From: Chloroflexota bacterium
GTDB lineage: Bacteria > Chloroflexota > Dehalococcoidia > Lucifugimonadales > UBA3495
Assembly (NCBI GenBank): GCA_028875655.1
Contig: JAPPCX010000112.1
Span: 141 to 64,140 of the forward strand
Reading direction: 5' to 3'
Length of the DNA: 64,000 nucleotides
Positions 3,062 to 61,921 of the stretch are shown here, in pieces. A model generated the notes under the pieces. That model saw only the letters and a program-made list of their open reading frames with translations, did no database searches and was not told the origin of the DNA. The first letter of the stretch is position 1; every line of letters begins with the position of its first letter. The position numbers and the translations under genes are program-made.

Positions 3062-3110
3062 AATCGCTACCGTCCGCTCGCGCCGAGCCTAAAGCCCGTT
3101 GACAAGTATC

Positions 3111-3211
3111 GTCATTCCCGCGAAAGCGGGAATCCAGTGTCCGAACTCGTTAATCACGCTTCCGACTTGTGTACCGTATGACTTCTGGACTCCTGCTTTC
3201 GCAGGAGTAAC
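3111..3211. repeat. 101-nt composite REP element (two different hairpins)
   Basis: GTCATTCCCGCGAAAGCGGGAATCCAG (3111-3137), a spacer, then CTGGACTCCTGCTTTCGCAGGAGTAAC (3185-3211). A collinear copy lies at 13853-13953. Confidence 0.8.
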
Positions 3212-5296: not shown

Positions 5297-5314
5297 TGGC
5301 GTTATTCGCACTCT

Positions 5315-5341
5315 CTGGATTCCCGCGTTCGCGGGAATGAC
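5315..5341. repeat. REP family 1 hairpin
   Basis: CTGGATTCCCGCGTTCGCGGGAATGAC, an 8-bp stem (ATTCCCGC/GCGGGAAT) with a 4-nt loop. Confidence 0.85.
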
Positions 5342-5350
5342 GGGAAGGGA

Positions 5351-11888: not shown

Positions 11889-11899
11889 CCGGGTTCCCG

Positions 11900-11925
11900 C
11901 CATTCCCGCGAAAGCGGAAATCCAG
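11900..11925. repeat. REP family 1 hairpin (slightly degenerate)
   Basis: CCATTCCCGCGAAAGCGGAAATCCAG. Confidence 0.75.
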
Positions 11926-11951
11926 AAACCGCAACATCTGGAGACTATCTC

Positions 11952-28804: not shown

Positions 28805-29113
28805 GTGGCGATTTTTTGGAAATCCCGCTCATTTCCGCTCGTTTCGGTCCATTTGAGTAGGGCGATAGGACGTGACGTTGGAGGTAAATGGGGGCGGCGA
28901 GGTCGGTTTTGGGGGCCAAAATGATGGTTTTGGCGGGCTGGCGGGAGGATTTGGGGGCGGTGTTTGAGGGTGGCGCGTGATTGTCTGAATCAGGATTATC
29001 GAGATTAGAGGATTTTCAGGATTGGGAGCTTCCGGGTATTTGGAATGGGGCGATTGGACGGCTAGGTTAAATGGTACGGATGGATGGAGGGTTAGGACAA
29101 GGGGGACTTGTCA
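28805..29113 (+). repeat. ~310-bp strand-asymmetric mosaic repeat, copy A (G/T-rich strand on +)
   Basis: Aligns by eye with 50701-51017 (+) and with the reverse complement of 42361-42714. Shared blocks: CCGCTCATTTCCGCT, TTTGAGTAGGG, GGTTTTGGGGG, TTTTGGCGGGC, GGATTTGGGG, TTAAATGGTACGGATGGATGGAGGGTTAG.ACAAGGGGGA..TGTCA. Confidence 0.85.
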
Positions 29114-29120
29114 TTTGTTG

Positions 29121-29558
29121 TCAAACTAAATGGACGATTTCCACGTCGCCCCAATGCCTTTGCAGGTGTTCGGCGACGAGCCGGCGATGGCAGCGGTCGG
29201 CGGTGGGTTCACTGCACAGCAGGCAACTGTCGGCGATTATTTCCCGAGGGATGGCGGCGCGGATGAGCCGGCGTTCGATCAGGTTGTTGAATATGGGAAC
29301 GTACTCATCCCAGGTGATCTGCTTCTTGCGGTAGGCGTCCAGCAATTCGTCGGTGGGAGACAGCCGGGGCAGGTGTATGTAGTCCATACCGCACAGTTCG
29401 CGCAGGAACCACGCCAGATCGTCCTTCTTCGCGAACCCGGCCAAGCCGGAGGTGTTGCGGCGGCGTATGTCCACCACGCGCTTGGCTCCCGACTCGCGCA
29501 GCAGCCCAAAGAATCGCTCCGCCGACTTGCGCGTGAAGCCGATGGTGTAGAACTTCAT
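29121..29558 (-). CDS. DUF488 family protein (short paralogue)
   Basis: MKFYTIGFTRKSAERFF..L...G...VVDIRR... and LLCSEPTADRCHRRLVAEHL (DUF488 C..CHR signature). The ATG at 29558 shares one nt with the upstream stop (TGATG). The track start is 29573. Confidence 0.8.
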   Translation of the reverse strand: MKFYTIGFTRKSAERFFGLLRESGAKRVVDIRRRNTSGLAGFAKKDDLAWFLRELCGMDYIHLPRLSPTDELLDAYRKKQITWDEYVPIFNNLIERRLIRAAIPREIIADSCLLCSEPTADRCHRRLVAEHLQRHWGDVEIVHLV

Positions 29559-30208
29559 CACGCGGCGTCCCATTCGTCAGGGGTGGCGGTTGGCTTCTCA
29601 GCCACGTAGGCGAACTTGCGGGCCTGACGTTCCAAAGCCTCAACGATCACGTCATCGCGGGTGCGGAACATATCCCCGTTGGGGGGCAGTTTGTGAGCTT
29701 TCACCAGCCGCGCCATTGCGTCACCGTGCGACTCCAGGCCACCACTAGCCAGGATGTGTGCGACGGGCACGCCGCGCTCGGCCAGGGCGCGCGCCACCAG
29801 CAGGGTGCGGTGACACTCCAGCGGTTCCTTTTCCGTGCAGAGCAGTGCGACGCGGCGTTCGTCGGCGGCGCGGATGACGCTTCGAATGCCGTCGTCAAAC
29901 TGGGTGGTTTCGGCGACTCGGTCGTAGAGTACGCGGCCGTCGGAGTCGTAGCAGGAACGGTCGGCCGGTCGGCCGCCCAGTTCGCCGCCCAGATAAGCGT
30001 AGGCGATGCCGATGTCGTCAAGCGCCTGTTGCAGAGGTTCATAGTTGAAGTGCGGCGTGTAACGGCTGTACGGAGCGGAACGAACGTCGGCAACTTCGTC
30101 GATGCCGTGGCGGAGCAGCAGGTTGATGAACGTTTCGGGAGGGTGGTTGGAATGGCCTACGGTGAAGACCGGGTAAAAGGACTCGCTCAATACGGGACTC
30201 TCCGTCAA
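29558..30208 (-). CDS. DUF488 family protein (long paralogue)
   Basis: VFTVGHSNHPPETFINLLLRHGIDEVADVRSAPYSRYTPHF and LLCTEKEPLECHRTLLVARAL. The TTG start overlaps the upstream stop (TTGA). Confidence 0.8.
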   Translation of the reverse strand: MTESPVLSESFYPVFTVGHSNHPPETFINLLLRHGIDEVADVRSAPYSRYTPHFNYEPLQQALDDIGIAYAYLGGELGGRPADRSCYDSDGRVLYDRVAETTQFDDGIRSVIRAADERRVALLCTEKEPLECHRTLLVARALAERGVPVAHILASGGLESHGDAMARLVKAHKLPPNGDMFRTRDDVIVEALERQARKFAYVAEKPTATPDEWDAA

Positions 30209-30888
30209 GGTCTGATGATGGTGGCGATAAGTTTGTAGGCGTGACCCTCGAAAGGTTCGCCGAGGCTTACGGTAAGGTATCTTTCACCGACAGTGTACTC
30301 GCCATACTGTAGTTCCACCGAGCCGCCCTCGCTTTCAGGGTCGGTAATGCGAAAGCAGTACTCCTCCCCATGGTAGCCGAAACTGCCGCGCAGTATGGGG
30401 TAATCGGCGCTGGGCCGCAGCGGTTCGGACACGGTTACGGTTAGCGCATCAACCCTAATCAAGCGCAGGGAGTTTTCGATGGATAAAGTCTCCGCGAGGG
30501 GAACCCGGTCGTTTCGTCCTGCCTGGGTGCTGTGCCCGTTTATCCAGAGCGGCCCTTCCTGATCGATCATGGTGTACAGGTCGTCCCAAGTCGCTTGCCC
30601 AGCCTTGGCCCATTGGTGATTGGGATCCAGCAGCCAGTTTTCCCGCTGATAGGTTTTCGGATGTGGTCGGAGCAGCGGCACGTCGATAATGTCCAGCACC
30701 TGCGGGTCGCCACCATCGATGTAGAAGCGTTCCCGCTCCGACACTTCTTCATCTTTCCGAAAGCTTACCGGACGAACCCAACCCCCGGCGCGGCCATCCA
30801 GCAGCAAATTCTTGCCGGCGACGCAACGGCCGCCGCGCTTACGGGAGTTGGCAAGGCAGACGATGCGCTTGACGGTGGGAGCAGTCAT
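30205..30888 (-). CDS. hypothetical protein with N-terminal CLANSRK-GGRC-AGK motif
   Basis: 227 aa from the ATG at 30888 (239 aa from the TTG at 30924). KRIVCLANSRKRGGRCVAGK...WVRPVS...LDIIDVPL...ENWLLD. I cannot assign it to a named family. Confidence 0.6.
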   Translation of the reverse strand: MTAPTVKRIVCLANSRKRGGRCVAGKNLLLDGRAGGWVRPVSFRKDEEVSERERFYIDGGDPQVLDIIDVPLLRPHPKTYQRENWLLDPNHQWAKAGQATWDDLYTMIDQEGPLWINGHSTQAGRNDRVPLAETLSIENSLRLIRVDALTVTVSEPLRPSADYPILRGSFGYHGEEYCFRITDPESEGGSVELQYGEYTVGERYLTVSLGEPFEGHAYKLIATIIRP

Positions 30889-30892
30889 AGTT

Positions 30893-31342
30893 TCATCTGT
30901 TGCCGGCAAGACATGATATTGCAACCATAGTCCGTTCTTGTTGAATGGCTTGGTAGAAGTCGACTATGGCGGCTTCGGCCTGGTCTATCCAAGCATTTAC
31001 CTGCGATTGTGTAAAGGACTGCATAGGGTTGTAATCAGCTTCTTCGCGCTGGTATTTAAGGTCTCCGATGACATTGGCGAAGTCCTGTACTGGTTGGCAA
31101 AAGAGGTTGTGCCATCTATTGAGAGGATTAGCTGCTCTGCGATGTTGTAGAGAGCGATACGTTCTGGCCCAGTCGGTCTGGTTAGCCGCGGTTCTGGGCC
31201 CATGCATACAGTCGGCTATGGACGTGGCGAGGGCATGGAATATGGCGTAGTACGCTGTGCTGACGGCGCGGCGCAACGCTTCTTGGCTAGGCTGCCCGGC
31301 CGCGAGTGAACGGCTGGCTACGATGAGGTTTTGCCAGTCCAC
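30893..31342 (-). CDS. HEPN-domain-like protein
   Basis: ALRRAVSTAYYAIFHALATS and LKYQREEADYNP match the helix-1 and R-x4-Y helix patterns of HEPN (PF05168-like). No clear Rx4-6H RNase motif. The GTG start shares one nt with the upstream TAG. Confidence 0.6.
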   Translation of the reverse strand: MDWQNLIVASRSLAAGQPSQEALRRAVSTAYYAIFHALATSIADCMHGPRTAANQTDWARTYRSLQHRRAANPLNRWHNLFCQPVQDFANVIGDLKYQREEADYNPMQSFTQSQVNAWIDQAEAAIVDFYQAIQQERTMVAISCLAGNR

Positions 31343-31641
31343 TAGATGCTCAGTTCGTGTGCTTCGCTTTTGTGGATGTATGAGATTGATGGCCTTGCAT
31401 GGATGCCGAGGTTACGTAGTGGCTCCACGATAACGCGGTGGAACGAGTTGAGCAGTCTGGGATCTAGCGAATGGGGATCCCCGTCGTAGATTACCCAGAC
31501 GCTGAGATACTCCTCGTTGTCCAAGTCGAGTGCCGGTTTTGCTCTGACACTCTGGAAGGCAACCTTGTTCCTGTGATGGATTTGAAGGTTGTCTGAGATC
31601 ATGGCCTCGACTTGACGGGTTTGGTCTTCCGAGATCGACAT
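31342..31641 (-). CDS. small acidic hypothetical protein (possible partner of the HEPN protein)
   Basis: 99 aa. AAGGAG lies 6 nt before the ATG at 31641. No recognisable motif, and it lacks the GS...DxD signature of MNT nucleotidyltransferases. Confidence 0.5.
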   Translation of the reverse strand: MSISEDQTRQVEAMISDNLQIHHRNKVAFQSVRAKPALDLDNEEYLSVWVIYDGDPHSLDPRLLNSFHRVIVEPLRNLGIHARPSISYIHKSEAHELSI

Positions 31642-31658
31642 GGTTAGCTCCTTGCAAA

Positions 31659-32417
31659 TCAGTTTAGCAGATTCAAAGCCGCTCTCAGGTAATCCACCGC
31701 CGCCCCAACGTCCAGCACGTCATCCCCATCCCGTAGCCGTCCCTCCGCGTCGATGCTGACATTGCTCCAACGAGGCAGCAGCGGCGACAGCAACTCCTGG
31801 ATGTTGTCGGCGCACAACCCGCCGGCAACGACCAACCCCAACTCCGGCGCAGCGTCCGCAAGAGCATCGAGGTATCTGGCAGAGCGGTCAGCGTCCAGCG
31901 GCAGCCCCAAGCCCTCCGAGGCGTCCACCAGCACGTCGGTTACGATGCCGACGTACTCGGCGCACCGTTGGGCGAGCCTGGCGGGGTCGCCGTCCACGGA
32001 CGCCATCGCTTCCCGGCCGGCTTGCAGGACGATGCGTTGGGGTTGGCTGCGTTCGCGGTATTCGACCAGCGCCGCCGGGTCGGGCCAGGGGACGCCGCGG
32101 GTGGCGTTGATCTGGACGCCGTGGCAGTCGGGGCCGCCGACCTGCGTTGCACGGGTTAAAGCGTCCGCAAGGTTCACGCCGGGCCGAGGCCGGTAGTGGA
32201 TCAGATTCAGGCAACGCGGGTCGTCGGAGAAGATGCCGGCGATAAACTCGGTTGCTGGGCAGCGGTTGGGCGCGTCGCTGGACTCGCCGGACAGCCGCGC
32301 GTTGCTGAGCAGCACGCCGCACATGAGCAGGCGGTCCGGCGCATCCGGCAGCGACGCGAGGACGGCGGCGACTTCGGCGGGAGAAGTAAATCCGGTGATG
32401 CCGATATATGGTGTCAT
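31659..32417 (-). CDS. TrpF (phosphoribosylanthranilate isomerase)-like TIM-barrel protein, divergent
   Basis: PYIGITGFTSPAE, HGVQINA, VLVDASEGLGLPLD, VVAGGLCADNIQEL and VSIDAEGRLRDG parallel TrpF landmarks. The Cys of the TrpF K-I-C-G-I-T motif is Ile here. Confidence 0.55.
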   Translation of the reverse strand: MTPYIGITGFTSPAEVAAVLASLPDAPDRLLMCGVLLSNARLSGESSDAPNRCPATEFIAGIFSDDPRCLNLIHYRPRPGVNLADALTRATQVGGPDCHGVQINATRGVPWPDPAALVEYRERSQPQRIVLQAGREAMASVDGDPARLAQRCAEYVGIVTDVLVDASEGLGLPLDADRSARYLDALADAAPELGLVVAGGLCADNIQELLSPLLPRWSNVSIDAEGRLRDGDDVLDVGAAVDYLRAALNLLN

Positions 32418-32449: not shown

Positions 32450-32476
32450 CTGGATTCCCGCTTTCGCGGGAATGAC
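32450..32476. repeat. REP family 1 hairpin
   Basis: CTGGATTCCCGCTTTCGCGGGAATGAC. Confidence 0.85.
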
Positions 32477-32534
32477 GGGTAAGGAGGCGGGAACGACGGC
32501 GCAGTTCAAGAATGACGGCGCAGTTAACGCAATG

Positions 32535-34267: not shown

Positions 34268-34639
34268 ATGTCAATGTTCAAGGTGGACATCGGCGTCGGC
34301 AACCTGGACGGCGGCGACCTGGCTCCGGTTCGACCCATAGTGGACACCGGCGCGGCACATTCCATGTTGCCCGAGTCGCTGCTGACCCGGCTGGGCATTG
34401 CGCCCCGCCGTACTCTCAGCTTCATCCTGGCCGACGGCAGCCCGGCAATCTACGGTTTCGGGTTCGCTCGGCTCAATATTGACGGAGAGGAATGTCCCTG
34501 CCCGGTCATCTTCGGGCCGGAGAGCAACCAACTGCTGGGCGCGTCCACCCTGGAGATTTTCAACCTGGTGGTTGACCCGGCCGGGGAACGCCTGTTGCCC
34601 GCCGAATGGCTCTCGCTGGGCTGGGGCGGGGATTTATAG
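34268..34639 (+). CDS. retropepsin-like (clan AA) aspartic protease, single domain
   Basis: IVDTGAAHSMLP (catalytic D-T-G) and C-terminal LLGASTLEIF (the ILG-type dimer-interface motif). 123 aa. Confidence 0.7.
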   Translation: MSMFKVDIGVGNLDGGDLAPVRPIVDTGAAHSMLPESLLTRLGIAPRRTLSFILADGSPAIYGFGFARLNIDGEECPCPVIFGPESNQLLGASTLEIFNLVVDPAGERLLPAEWLSLGWGGDL

Positions 34640-34925: not shown

Positions 34926-35222
34926 TCACAAGTTTCTGGCAGCCGGCGCCGGCATGGACTCTCCGGCCTTTTCGCGCCGCACGTGTTCGCGCAAAACCAG
35001 ATTGATGTGCGTCTGGCAGTCTATATCGGTTTTGGTATTGGACTTGAACCAGGCGATTACGTCGGCATCGAGGTCCAGGGTAATCCGCTGCTTAGTCAGC
35101 CGGTAAATGACGCCGCGCTTAGCGTTGGACCAGTCCGTAACTTCGGGGATGTCGCTGGTGTCGATCTCGTCTTCGGACATTGCAGCCAGGGCGGCGAGTT
35201 CGGCCTTTTGCTGGTCGGTCAT
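34926..35222 (-). CDS. BrnA-type antitoxin-like protein
   Basis: EDEIDTSDIPEVTDWSNAKRG...ITLDLDADVIAWFKSN...QTHINLVLREHV matches the BrnA_antitoxin pattern. The ATG at 35222 is preferred over the track start at 35384. Confidence 0.7.
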   Translation of the reverse strand: MTDQQKAELAALAAMSEDEIDTSDIPEVTDWSNAKRGVIYRLTKQRITLDLDADVIAWFKSNTKTDIDCQTHINLVLREHVRREKAGESMPAPAARNL

Positions 35223-35226
35223 ACTG

Positions 35227-35529
35227 CTAGCTCTCAGGCGGGAGCGGGATTCGGGAGCCAATGCTGCGAGCCTCATAAAGCATTCGCTGAGTTTCTTCCC
35301 AATACGCATCGTTTTTCCGCCAAGCCCCGGCAGTGGAACGCAACAGCCGCTGGCGTTCCTCATCGGATAGCGGAAGCGGAGCATCGAAGGTGATCAGGTA
35401 TTCGTCGCCCTCGCGCAGCTCAACCGGCTCCAACGGCACCAGCGCGCCGTTCACGCAACGGGCTTTTATGGTTTTGAGCGTGGTGGGCCTCTCATGGGTT
35501 TGAGGCTGTATGGATAGCGGCATTGCCAT
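35227..35529 (-). CDS. DUF104 (AF2212-like) antitoxin-like protein
   Basis: IKARCVNGALVPLEPVELREGDEYLITF is the DUF104 beta-hairpin signature. The C-terminal AGAWRKNDAYWEE tail is common in this family. Confidence 0.6.
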   Translation of the reverse strand: MAMPLSIQPQTHERPTTLKTIKARCVNGALVPLEPVELREGDEYLITFDAPLPLSDEERQRLLRSTAGAWRKNDAYWEETQRMLYEARSIGSRIPLPPES

Positions 35530-35554: not shown

Positions 35555-37828
35555 TTACGGAAAGTAATGCCTGAAAGGAATGCCTTCGGCGTCTTTCAAG
35601 AGATCCAATCCCTTCCCATAGCCAGTGTTTCCCAATACGATAGTCGAAACGGCGTGAGGAGATTGGAATTTATAATCTTCTGCAAATCTGTACAGTGCCC
35701 TCTCCTCAACTAACACGCCATCTGCAATCAGTCGATCTTTCCTCCTTTGGTATCGCCAGTAGCTCTGAGTGAGTTCACGTTTGGTAGCAGTGGAACCTGC
35801 CAAAACGATAATCTGGTTCCTGCTATACACGTCGCACTTCGCGAATATGCCGTCACGATTCGGGCCAATGCAAAAACGCTTGGGTGTTCCGCTGGGGATT
35901 TGGCCTGTCTGCGCAGTATCGTTCCAAGTGTCTCGCTTGTTAGGGAATGGTTCAATATCATCATCTTCGTCAAAAGGTGAGAAGACACCTGATGCCTGGG
36001 GCGTGATCCAGTCATCCGGCAACAACTCGGCATTTCGCGCTTCTCGCCGCAACAAGTGCAACACCTTATTCCACGCGCTGTTAAAAATTACCCGCTCATC
36101 AACTTGATTACTTTCCAGTCCAGCAAGCTCATCTTCCCAGCCGTCCACTTGAAGCCACAGATATTCTTCCCAATCGCGGAATATTCGACGTTCCTCTGCC
36201 CGGCTTGGACGCTGCGGCAAGGTAGAAACATATTGATCAAATAACGCATCCACGTTCTCCTCATCGTTTAGTGCTGACTTCCACTCGTCGATAAGGCTAC
36301 GCAATTCGTTGCGCCGCTCAACGTCGGCCCCGGCGATACTTTGTCGCTCAGATTCCAGCAGCTCTCGGAATAGAGCAGACAGCCGGTTAGCGAGGCCGTC
36401 ATCAATCTCAACATCGCTTGGGAACGTCATTTCGTCCTCCGGGTCGTATTGGTCAACCAGCTGGTTCAGCGGTGGCATTACGGGCAAATGCGCCTGTATA
36501 TGGGCGTCGATGTGGCACAGGTCGCAGACACGCTGATGCGCGTCGCCGCACTCCGTTTCGTAAAGCCAGCGCCTTCGGTAGGAACGCCACCGACCACAAC
36601 GGTTACATACTTTGCCGAAAGCATAGCCGCATCCACGGCAGTTGTGGCTGGCAGCAGGCGAGGCTACGCCGCACTCAGGACATACCACTACCGGAGCCTC
36701 AGCGCCTGACTTCTGCGCCCCGCGTGGTTCCAGCGACCATTCGCGGTAGTCTTCGGGCAGGCCGTGGGTTACGGCGTTGGCGGCCAGGTCCAGCAAGATG
36801 CAGTCGCCGCCGTCGGGTTTGGGGCGCAGGCCGCGGCCTACCATTTGCAGATACAGCGCGAGGCTCATGGTCGGGCGGGCGATGATGACGCAGGATGCGT
36901 CGGGCAGGTCGAACCCCTCGGTGGCGACGATTACGTTGACCAGCACCCTGATGCTACCATCGCGGAACCCGGCGATGGCCTTGTCTCGTTCTTCCCGGTT
37001 GGTGTCGCCGAGGATGACTGCCGCCTGGATGCCGGCATCGTTGAACACGGCGGCCAGGTTGTGCGCGTGGTCAACGGACACGGCGTAGGCGATGGTTGGA
37101 CGGTTCTCGGTGTGCCTTTGCCAGAAGGCCAGCGCGCCGGCGGTCATTATGTCCGGCCGATCCCGGTTGGCCTGCTCGATGCCGGACTCGGTGTAGTCGC
37201 CGGTGCGGTCAACTGCGCCGCCGGCGATGCGCTATTCGGGCGGCGGGATGAATACCTGCGCGTCGCATAGCGAACCGAGGCTTTGCAAGTCGGCAGTCTG
37301 CGGTCCGCAGAGCAGATCGCCAAAGAGATGGTCGAAACCCTCTTTCTCCGACAGCCGCCAGGGCGTGGCCGTCATGCCGACGATGGGGCCGGGCCACTGC
37401 TGCATGGCGCGTTCCCAGCCGGGCGCGGCGGCGTGGTGCGCTTCGTCGATAACCAGCAGGTCGTTGGGGCCGTAGCGGTTCCACACTTCCCGGCGGGCAG
37501 TGCGCCGGCCCACGGTTTGCGCCATCAGGATGACCGCGCCGCCGGCCATGGCGGGAGCGTCCTCGCCCGGCGTCCAGTTGACGTTGGTGATGGCGGACAC
37601 GCCGGCGTCGGTGAGCATCCCCCGCGTCTGCTCGGCCAGTTCCTTGCGGTGGGTGAGCCAGACCGCCTTGCGTCCATTACGCAACCAGTCGGCCAGCAGC
37701 GCGCCGGCGATGACGGTCTTGCCGCCGCCGGTGGGCAGTTGCAGCATCACCCGCGCTTTGAGGTCGGCGGCCAGCGCCTCCTGCGTCCGTTTGAGCAGAG
37801 CCTGCTGGTAGGGGCGGAGCTGGAACAT
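35555..37828 (-). pseudogene. SF2 (DEAH) helicase + Zn-ribbon + DUF4357-like C-terminal domain, interrupted by one in-frame TAG
   Basis: N-terminal ORF: LPTGGGKT (motif I), VIDEAHH (II), MTATP (III). After the TAG at 37232-37234 the same frame continues: ...VFIPPPE*RIAGGAVDRTGDYTESGIEQ...VATEGFDLPD, QMVGRGLR (VI), CPECG...CRGCG, and C-terminal FAEDYKFQSPHAVSTIVLGNTGYG (DUF4357-like). Confidence 0.75.
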
Positions 37829-42340: not shown

Positions 42341-42360
42341 GCCGGCGGACGACGAACCAA

Positions 42361-42714
42361 TGACACTTCCACCTTGCCCCTACTCACCATCCATCAGTAC
42401 CATTTAACTACCCAACCGCCCAACTCCATCCCTCCGCCCGAATCCAAATGGGCCGCAACCCCGAAATCCTGATTCTGACAATCACGAACCATCCCCAAAC
42501 ACCGCTCCCCCAAACCCTCTCAAATGCCCGCCAAAAGCCCCAATATCACTTCCAAAACCGGCTCAATTCTCCCCCATTCACCCCCACGTCCCACCCCCTG
42601 CCCCTACTCAAATAACCGGAAGTGAGCGGAAATGAGCGGGTTTCCGCAAAAACCCCCGCCATCCCAATGAAATCCCTGATCCTGCCCATCCTGTTCATCC
42701 ATGCAAATAACTCC
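42361..42714 (-). repeat. ~350-bp mosaic repeat, copy C (C/A-rich strand on +)
   Basis: The reverse complement aligns with copies A and B end to end, including the 26-nt GCATGGATGAACAGGATGGGCAGGAT motif (42679-42704). Confidence 0.85.
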
Positions 42715-48020: not shown

Positions 48021-51017
<2,997 letters not shown>

Positions 51018-52036: not shown

Positions 52037-52048
52037 CTGTTGCGACAC

Positions 52049-52075
52049 CTGGATTCCCGCTTGCGCGGGAATGAC
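52049..52075. repeat. REP family 1 hairpin
   Basis: CTGGATTCCCGCTTGCGCGGGAATGAC. The track start at 52071 lies inside it. Confidence 0.85.
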
Positions 52076-52100
52076 GGGAGTGAAATCAAGGACGGTACGA

Positions 52101-61763: not shown

Positions 61764-61806
61764 TGCGGGGATTGTACACTGATACCAGAATTTGTTGACA
61801 TTTCCC

Positions 61807-61833
61807 GTCATTCCCGCGAAAGCGGGAATCCAG
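61807..61833. repeat. REP family 1 hairpin
   Basis: GTCATTCCCGCGAAAGCGGGAATCCAG, identical to 3111-3137. Confidence 0.85.
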
Positions 61834-61921
61834 AGAGTGCAAATCAGGCCGACTTTCCTGTCGCAATGGCTTTCTGGGTTCCTGGCTGAGATTCACACCA
61901 AATCCGAATGCTTACGATGAA

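Follow-up and report, generated by a model that had tools for sequence, protein, structure and literature searches.

Do six genes that follow one another almost without intervening sequence necessarily form one system? The question is raised by a block of minus-strand genes at positions 29121-32417 of a 64-kb window (the whole stretch of DNA analysed here, taken from contig JAPPCX010000112.1 of a Chloroflexota bacterium of the class Dehalococcoidia). The open reading frame (ORF) list of the window gives n=6 minus-strand frames in this interval, encoding in the order of transcription a TIM-barrel protein, a small protein of 99 amino acids (aa), a HEPN-like protein, a 227-aa protein with a Cys motif and two DUF488 proteins. 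An initial annotation, made from the letters of the sequence, had proposed the six genes as one coupled unit, a candidate conflict or nucleotide-processing system of a kind not described before. We find that the block is a real but composite operon, and that its core, formed by the last three genes, is a further member of an already catalogued candidate defence system. With a probability of about 0.6, the block consists of three separable modules on one transcript, the core being a candidate defence module that acts on nucleic-acid ends or ribose-phosphates.

The DuOB/DUF488 trio

DUF488 is a large domain of unknown function that includes E. coli YeaO, and DUF488 enzymes are classed as Cys-containing members of the rhodanese/phosphatase superfamily, within a RapZ-C/DUF488/DUF4326 clade. 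Burroughs and Aravind (2023) reportedly defined this clade, and their abstract is said to predict DNA-end-processing, nucleic-acid-modifying conflict systems. Both DUF488 proteins of the block pass the PF04343 gathering threshold of 22.2 bits (78.4 and 68.1 bits; E 9e-22 for the long and 1.4e-18 for the short protein). The model titled "active DUF488-N3 subclade" (DUF488-N3a, PF22751) is passed by the short protein only, with E 7e-10 and 39.6 bits vs a cut-off of 27; the long protein remains under this threshold (16.2 bits) yet keeps the putative catalytic motifs. The Cys/CHR signature seen at first in both paralogues is real: D-x-R, C-x-E and C-H-R are kept in both, the long protein reading DVR, and D30, R32, C115, E117, C123, H124 and R125 (numbered as in the short protein) are invariant in 12 DUF488 sequences from both paralogue groups and several phyla. 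The short DUF488 is present in every variant of the system and lies 3' of the 227-aa gene at every locus examined.

The 227-aa Cys-motif protein, which had at first been left without a family, matches the Pfam family DuOB (PF22557, titled "dual OB-containing domain") along its full length, with E 1.4e-63 and 215.2 bits (cut-off 27) over profile positions 1-210 of 210. An alternative start at TTG 30924 would give a protein of 239 aa; the ATG at 30888 is preferred because the homologues start with MTAPTVKRIV. DuOB homologues number 2822 and come from several phyla. The residues that are invariant across phyla include C22, A24-G25-K26, W37, R39, Q81-x-E83-N84, D127 and Y218-K219.

The block had been expected to match no described system and to pass unrecognised by PADLOC, and for its 3' half both expectations prove wrong. 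The hidden Markov models PDC-M45A, PDC-M45B and PDC-M45C match DuOB, the long DUF488 and the short DUF488 at E 4.3e-82, 1.7e-74 and 7.8e-63, respectively; the three matches cover nearly the whole profiles, and the genes are adjacent on one strand in the order A>>B>>C. PDC-M45 is defined as the three-family cassette FAM_01974>>FAM_00888>>FAM_01897 (Payne et al. 2024, supplement, 10.1101/2024.01.29.577857), one of 145 PDC candidates drawn from genes embedded in bacteriophage exclusion (BREX), DISARM (defence island system associated with restriction-modification) and type I restriction-modification (RM) loci (Payne et al. 2024, 10.1101/2024.01.29.577857). Judged by these profiles, the trio is the PADLOC candidate defence system PDC-M45, with a putative anti-phage activity. 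Because PDC-M45 is itself only a candidate, the membership tells nothing about mechanism. The trio resembles the catalogued system in its gene order and in the neighbours of its distant homologues, among which are PglZ (BREX-type) and RM genes, in line with the source study. It differs in that the cassette of the window lies outside any known defence system, at a conserved chromosomal site, behind a barrel gene and an inserted HEPN dyad. The barrel, 99-aa and HEPN proteins have no above-threshold match in Pfam, NCBIfam or PADLOC, and a comparison of all six proteins with NCBIfam yielded nothing of use.

Separable modules and a variable slot

The association of the trio with the other genes was followed in a set of compared loci (L001 and onwards), the close relatives among them (n=8) being obtained by a single-sequence query of genome contigs. 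Eight related loci in metagenome-assembled genomes (MAGs) of Dehalococcoidia/Chloroflexota share the order acyl-CoA synthetase, barrel, slot, DuOB, DUF488, DUF488, and the content of the slot varies. It is empty in L003-L006, where 13-17 nt with a ribosome-binding site (RBS) separate the barrel stop from the DuOB start. Elsewhere it holds two unrelated small ORFs (L001), a HigB-like toxin gene with a helix-turn-helix (HTH, HigA-like) gene (L002), a HigB-like gene with an HTH-ImmA/IrrE-like fusion (L007, assigned by similarity to L002 and by motifs, with no profile match) or an ORF of 91-93 aa (L010/L011). Among the loci with a barrel and a slot, the 99-aa/HEPN pair is found only in the window, L032 and L033, and the six-gene order of the window recurs in both of these. 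The DuOB of L033 was called as 171 aa, though tblastn aligns all 227 residues, which points to a stop codon in frame or to a fault of the assembly. A pair of Xre-HTH and ImmA/IrrE peptidase genes stands directly 5' of DuOB in Agrobacterium and in L022/L023. Two proteins, P0028 and P0035 (329 aa), carry a HigA-like HTH in frame with DuOB. A swappable cassette slot 5' of DuOB may be new.

The trio also occurs without its neighbours. At loci with 28-58% DuOB identity the DUF488 genes are always found 3' of DuOB, and some 15 loci in other lineages (L009, L012, L017-L030) contain DuOB and DUF488 without homologues of the barrel, 99-aa or HEPN genes; in L009 and L012 the trio stands alone beside unrelated genes. 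In genome OY762251.1 the barrel adjoins the acyl-CoA synthetase without the trio (L013), which lies together with a HEPN dyad 1.1 Mb away (L008). At the latter site a palindromic element of ~150 nt, resembling a miniature inverted-repeat transposable element (MITE) and flanked by a CCTCATCA duplication, interrupts DuOB (L008:8433-8581). A second architecture (L018, L019, L025, L028, L029) consists of DuOB, a short DUF488 and a fusion of minimal SLOG (mSLOG, PF22565) with DUF4326 that replaces the long DUF488. The Pfam models named DuOB and DUF488-N3a match window proteins above threshold, and the mSLOG+DUF4326 architecture is found in relatives. The trio without the other three genes in about 15 loci, the variable slot and the separate occurrence of the HEPN pair and of the barrel contradict the proposal of one coupled unit with fixed stoichiometry.

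Defence genes recur as neighbours of the trio. In Agrobacterium pAt1D1108a it lies between a CBASS (cyclic oligonucleotide-based antiphage signalling system)/HORMA operon with Xre/ImmA and TcmP with DUF5131, an integrase being nearby, and on an Allochromatium plasmid it lies among type III CRISPR accessory genes, between Csx16/Cas1 and Csm6. It is placed directly 5' of a PglZ-domain (BREX-type) gene in L024 and 3' of an Eco57I-type RM system in L029, and it abuts an MmeI-type RM system in L033. DuOB homologues are carried by 4-36 kb plasmids of Klebsiella, Citrobacter, Salmonella, Leclercia, Acinetobacter and Moraxella; the Leclercia and A. pittii plasmids, whose annotation was examined, encode DuOB, a short DUF488 and mSLOG+DUF4326. 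The cassette is present in 10 IMG/VR contigs, and no homologues of the trio were found in 50,697 cultured phage genomes. These comparisons establish the trio as a modular and mobile set of identified families that recurs in defence-gene neighbourhoods. The suggestion of a conflict system is upheld for the 3' genes by the neighbourhoods of their distant homologues; it fails for all six genes taken as one system.

Operon layout and composition

The six chained genes with their close junctions, as described initially, are found as such: all five junctions were read letter by letter, and each is an overlap or a spacer of <=17 nt (feature coordinates are given in Table 1). Between the TGA of the barrel gene and the ATG of the 99-aa gene lie 17 nt. 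In TAGTG the stop of the 99-aa gene overlaps the GTG start of the HEPN gene, whose TGA is followed by AACT and the ATG of DuOB. TTGA joins the stop of DuOB to the start of the long DUF488 gene, and TGATG joins the long DUF488 gene to the short one. Junctions of <=20 nt account for 5/5 within the block vs 9/38 same-strand junctions elsewhere in the window, the latter count resting on crude gene calls. Against this background a run of five tight junctions is unusual (~0.24^5), and the chaining is therefore consistent with a single transcript. A promoter scan found no sigma-70-like promoter inside the block. Terminator-like sites in the region number 2 vs 3.6 expected by chance, which is not significant. 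The six genes are probably co-transcribed.

The block had been described as looking richer in AT than its flanks. In terms of GC content at third codon positions (GC3), this is true of the HEPN (0.57, the lowest of the block), 99-aa (0.66) and DuOB (0.68) genes; it does not hold for the long DUF488 (0.75), short DUF488 (0.80) and barrel (0.80) genes, set against 0.83-0.86 in the flanking genes.

Table 1. Features of the six-gene block and its borders, by position in the window
Feature	Position	Strand	Basis
Dispersed repeat copy, ~310 bp, downstream of the operon	28813..29119		Self-comparison of the window
Short DUF488, 145 aa, ATG 29558; DUF488-N3a subclade; PDC-M45C	29121..29558	-	Pfam, PADLOC
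Weak hairpin resembling a terminator, short DUF488 gene, 3' end	29132..29151	-	Not significant
Long DUF488, 216 aa, TTG start overlapping the DuOB stop; C-terminal helical extension of ~70 aa; PDC-M45B	29558..30208	-	Pfam, PADLOC
DuOB (dual OB-fold) protein, 227 aa, ATG 30888; PDC-M45A, core component	30205..30888	-	Pfam, PADLOC
Probable HEPN-T (AF0298/UPF0332-like) protein, 149 aa, GTG start; putative toxin of the inserted two-gene cassette	30893..31342	-	Family profile, motifs
99-aa partner, putative antitoxin; small alpha/beta domain, undescribed family	31342..31641	-	Position, AlphaFold2 model
Spacer tttgcAAGGAGctaacc with AAGGAG ribosome-binding site, 5' of the 99-aa gene	31642..31658	-	Read in sequence
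TIM-barrel protein, 252 aa, distant relative of phosphoribosylanthranilate isomerase; lineage-restricted upstream neighbour of the trio	31659..32417	-	AlphaFold2 model
REP-like hairpin ATTCCCGCGAAAGCGGGAAT, between the acyl-CoA synthetase and barrel genes (gap of 117 nt)	32450..32477		Sequence read

The HEPN protein and its 99-aa partner

The 149-aa protein matches the Pfam HEPN model below threshold (E 0.24, 12 bits vs a cut-off of 22), and weak matches to this model are present in 11/31 members of its family, the best with E 0.018. A profile of the family matches PDB entry 2hsb (AF0298/UPF0332) at E 0.0016, aligning the segments STAYYAMFHA and REExDY, and H35 (YYAMFH), R98 and D102 (REEADY) are invariant in the 31 sequences. 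In HEPN-T proteins of the AF0298 type, the Rx4-6H motif retains its Arg and has another residue in place of the His, and a further conserved His is found N-terminal to the motif (Anantharaman et al. 2013, PMC3710099). The family follows this rule, with R98 kept, D102 in the place of His and H35 in the N-terminal part. The 2hsb match and the three invariant residues agree with the first reading of the protein as HEPN-like, and it is probably a member of the HEPN superfamily.

A gene of the 99-aa type is placed directly 5' of the HEPN gene, overlapping it, in L008, L014-L016 and L032-L034 as well. The 99-aa family has only 47 cluster representatives among 1.84 billion proteins, and neither the protein nor 10 of its relatives has a Pfam match. 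Its AlphaFold2 (AF2) model, with a predicted local distance difference test (pLDDT) score of 92, has an alpha-beta-beta-alpha-beta fold; compared with PDB folds it gave no significant match and no nucleotidyltransferase (NTase), the best hit having E 3e-3 and a template modelling (TM) score <0.5. The family has no conserved catalytic residues, and the G-S and D-x-D motifs are absent. A degenerate minimal nucleotidyltransferase (MNT) was rejected on motif, Pfam and fold evidence. Since the partner is not a nucleotidyltransferase, neutralisation by AMPylation is not expected. An apparent match to the family with 8 repeats (P0380) turned out to be spurious, a repetitive unrelated protein.

With 190 members, the HEPN family is present in several copies per genome, and the MAG of the window itself has a second one. 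Members at 51-68% identity form standalone dyads in unrelated contexts, each with a gene for 103-106 aa that overlaps from upstream. The dyad of the window is similar to the MNT-HEPN type II toxin-antitoxin (TA) systems (PMC3710099) in that the HEPN gene is overlapped by a small gene on its 5' side, in multiple copies and scattered contexts, and in the AF0298-type signature of its HEPN protein (Arg kept, Asp for His, N-terminal His). It differs from them in the 5' partner, which is not an MNT and belongs to a tiny undescribed family. The pair is most simply explained as an autonomous, multi-copy dyad of a putative type-II-like TA kind, and a HEPN-T protein paired with a non-MNT partner may be new.

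The barrel protein

The AF2 model of the 252-aa protein (pLDDT 92) has as its best PDB match the phosphoribosylanthranilate isomerase (PRAI) of T. kodakarensis, 5lhe (E 2.6e-9, TM 0.62 by query and 0.73 by target), followed by CutC and MJ1099 with phosphoribosyl pyrophosphate (PRPP). The TrpF-like fold proposed initially is confirmed by this model. The protein shares with TrpF/PRAI the (beta/alpha)8 fold. The GGL phosphate-binding segment after beta7 and the Asp after beta6 also appear to be kept, according to a reading of the sequence and a match to 4aaj that covers the GGL segment and is not significant (E 0.67). It differs in being only 18% identical and ~45 residues longer, and in the beta1 catalytic Cys (KICGIT), which is Ile (YIGITG) by a manual sequence alignment. 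The Pfam PRAI model (PF00697) does not match the barrel of the window, and 11/28 relatives match it below threshold, with a best E of 0.03. The barrel as a true TrpF was rejected on the missed PF00697 threshold and on the Ile at the catalytic Cys position of the manual alignment.

The barrel family comprises 530 proteins, and the matches listed are all close relatives; by this measure it does not extend beyond one Dehalococcoidia/Chloroflexota clade. In the family alignment C33, C53, C69, C98 and C152 are invariant, as are H74 and H99. This set of Cys and His residues could form a metal or redox site, unlike PRAI.

Surroundings of the block

A 310-bp repeat and a repetitive extragenic palindromic (REP) hairpin had been named as the borders of the block, and both are real, with further copies in the window. 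The repeat at 28813-29119 has 71% identity over 314 bp to positions 42355-42652 and 67% to 50756-51016, and it is strongly C-rich on the minus strand. Neither Rfam models nor a tRNA scan gave a match anywhere in the window; since there is no Rfam match, the repeat is not a known RNA. The REP-like hairpin has at least 11 copies in the window, located between genes (e.g. 3110-3137, 5314-5350, 11896-11937, 52040-52078, 61801-61834).

The nearby helicase/antitoxin islet of the initial annotation also exists, consisting of a split helicase and BrnA-like and AF2212-like genes. At 35555-37828 (minus strand) an SF2 helicase appears divided in two, a DEAD/ResIII part of 198 aa and a Helicase_C part of 530 aa, the latter with a DUF4357 tail matching PADLOC PDC-S14. 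The split helicase matches models of type IV restriction and of Dpd, in a generic manner. It is intact (716-763 aa) in syntenic genomes, and the copy of the window is possibly a pseudogene or the result of a frameshift. At 34926-35529 (minus strand) a gene resembling the BrnA antitoxin overlaps a small AF2212-like gene; next to them, at 34268-34639 (plus strand), is an ORF for a retropepsin-like aspartyl protease. This islet is syntenic in L013 and L033, where the BrnT toxin is present.

Discussion

For the biochemical activity, target and phage phenotype of the trio we infer a scheme by analogy. DuOB would bind single-stranded nucleic acid or a nucleic-acid terminus and present the bound substrate to the two DUF488 enzymes, which would add, remove or transfer phosphate or ribose-phosphate at the nucleic-acid end. 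As an outcome, invading DNA or RNA would no longer be replicated, ligated or translated. The end-processing part of this scheme follows published predictions for the sister domain DUF4326, for which processing of ribose-linked terminal phosphates is predicted, as is a link of NAD/ADP-ribose (ADPr) chemistry with DNA modification and RM (PMC9503650, PMC7824862). It also follows the DNA-end-processing role reportedly predicted for the RapZ-C/DUF488/DUF4326 clade. The trio (29121-30888) is a self-contained cassette that moves between genomes and plasmids; in this lineage it would have come to lie 3' of the barrel (31659-32417), presumably sharing its transcript. The dyad (30893-31641) would have landed in the variable slot just 5' of DuOB as an addiction or abortive module, its HEPN protein being a putative RNase that uses the alternative His35/Arg98 site. 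It may stabilise or regulate the locus, and the trio would not need it.

Several points weigh against this reading of three separable modules with a defensive core. The OB-fold nature of DuOB is taken from the name of its Pfam family, and no trio protein has a solved structure or a PDB homologue detectable by sequence, DUF488 having been searched as a single sequence and as a profile, and DuOB as a profile. A search of the papers available found no experimental or descriptive paper on DuOB, DUF488 or PDC-M45; because no experimental paper on DuOB/PDC-M45 was found, the mechanism is argued from domain logic alone. The 13-17 nt spacing with an RBS in the empty-slot genomes makes a functional link between barrel and trio possible within the clade, and L010/L011 keep the barrel beside the trio despite a different upstream context. 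Some linkage between dyad and trio is likewise possible, as the two are also neighbours at another genomic site, L008. The chromosomal position of the trio, beside metabolic genes, is conserved within the Dehalococcoidia clade, which looks more vertical than island-like; within 5 kb of the trio in the window, the split helicase is the only defence-like signal.

The strongest form of linkage would make all six genes one stoichiometrically coupled conflict unit, with the barrel, 99-aa and HEPN proteins as obligatory partners of DuOB/DUF488. Five consecutive tight or overlapping junctions, the identical order in L032 and L033, the HEPN pair accompanying the trio in L008 and the short barrel-DuOB spacer of the empty-slot genomes are what such a unit would display. 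In L003-L006, however, the slot of its supposed partners contains nothing, and in L001, L002, L007 and L010/L011 it is taken by HigBA, HigB+HigA-ImmA or unrelated small ORFs; about 15 loci of other lineages do without homologues of the three genes, HEPN dyads are found alone and barrels without the trio, and GC3 is sharply different between the modules. The comparative data already largely refute the six-gene unit, and we regard it as very improbable. Another and unlikely reading treats the slot as a place where exchangeable cassettes, acting as triggers or regulators, plug in and gate a DuOB/DUF488 effector, with the barrel as a fourth enzymatic component in the Chloroflexota clade. The cassettes seen, namely the HEPN-T/99-aa dyad, HigBA and Xre+ImmA/IrrE, may be such triggers; the barrel may make or isomerise a phosphoribosyl substrate that DUF488 transfers onto nucleic-acid ends, a role that may parallel that of the mSLOG domain in the DUF4326 variant.

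Two other explanations assign the trio to a purpose other than host defence. As a housekeeping or stress module, it would heal RNA or DNA ends or salvage ribose-phosphate or ADP-ribose metabolites, in the clade together with the PRAI-like barrel. Synteny in many Dehalococcoidia genomes beside acyl-CoA synthetase and CopA, the lack of an integrase near the block in the window, the zero homologues in cultured phages, the phosphoribosyl substrates bound by the best fold matches of the barrel (PRAI; MJ1099 with PRPP) and the nucleotide-binding family to which the mSLOG of the alternative architecture belongs all suit such a role. It is harder to reconcile with the patchy distribution across phyla, the presence of the system on plasmids of 4-500 kb, its repeated occurrence in or beside CBASS, CRISPR accessory, BREX and RM loci (the trio having been catalogued through guilt by embedding) and the MITE in the DuOB of L008, which shows DuOB to be dispensable; on balance we consider a housekeeping role unlikely. 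Alternatively, the trio would benefit mobile elements as an anti-defence or plasmid-maintenance module, e.g. in protecting or processing plasmid single-stranded DNA ends or in removing ADP-ribose-type modifications that host defences lay down. In this direction point the very small plasmids (4.2-10 kb) of Klebsiella, Citrobacter and Acinetobacter, of whose length the trio takes up a large share, its occurrence on the IMG/VR contigs and on a linear replicon of Rhodovastum that has small phage-like genes, and the sister domain DUF4326, often found in phages and giant viruses, where degradation of ADPr-derived molecules is its predicted role. Cultured phage genomes yield no match, however, most occurrences in the analysed set are chromosomal, defence genes would be expected to be embedded in host BREX, RM and CRISPR loci as the trio is, and defence genes are often found on small plasmids too, which together make a service to mobile elements a distinctly unlikely explanation.

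The preferred reading of a candidate defence core behind two separable modules makes the locus of the window one more example of a candidate cassette, to which it adds little in itself. More useful are the regulatory and TA cassettes that are repeatedly swapped in just 5' of DuOB, and a putative HEPN-T toxin with a non-nucleotidyltransferase partner. The DuOB/DUF488 cassette is widespread, occurring in several phyla, on plasmids and beside CBASS, CRISPR, BREX and RM systems. Its function, once established, would give DUF488 a biochemical role, and might reveal a new way to disable invading nucleic acids by end modification.

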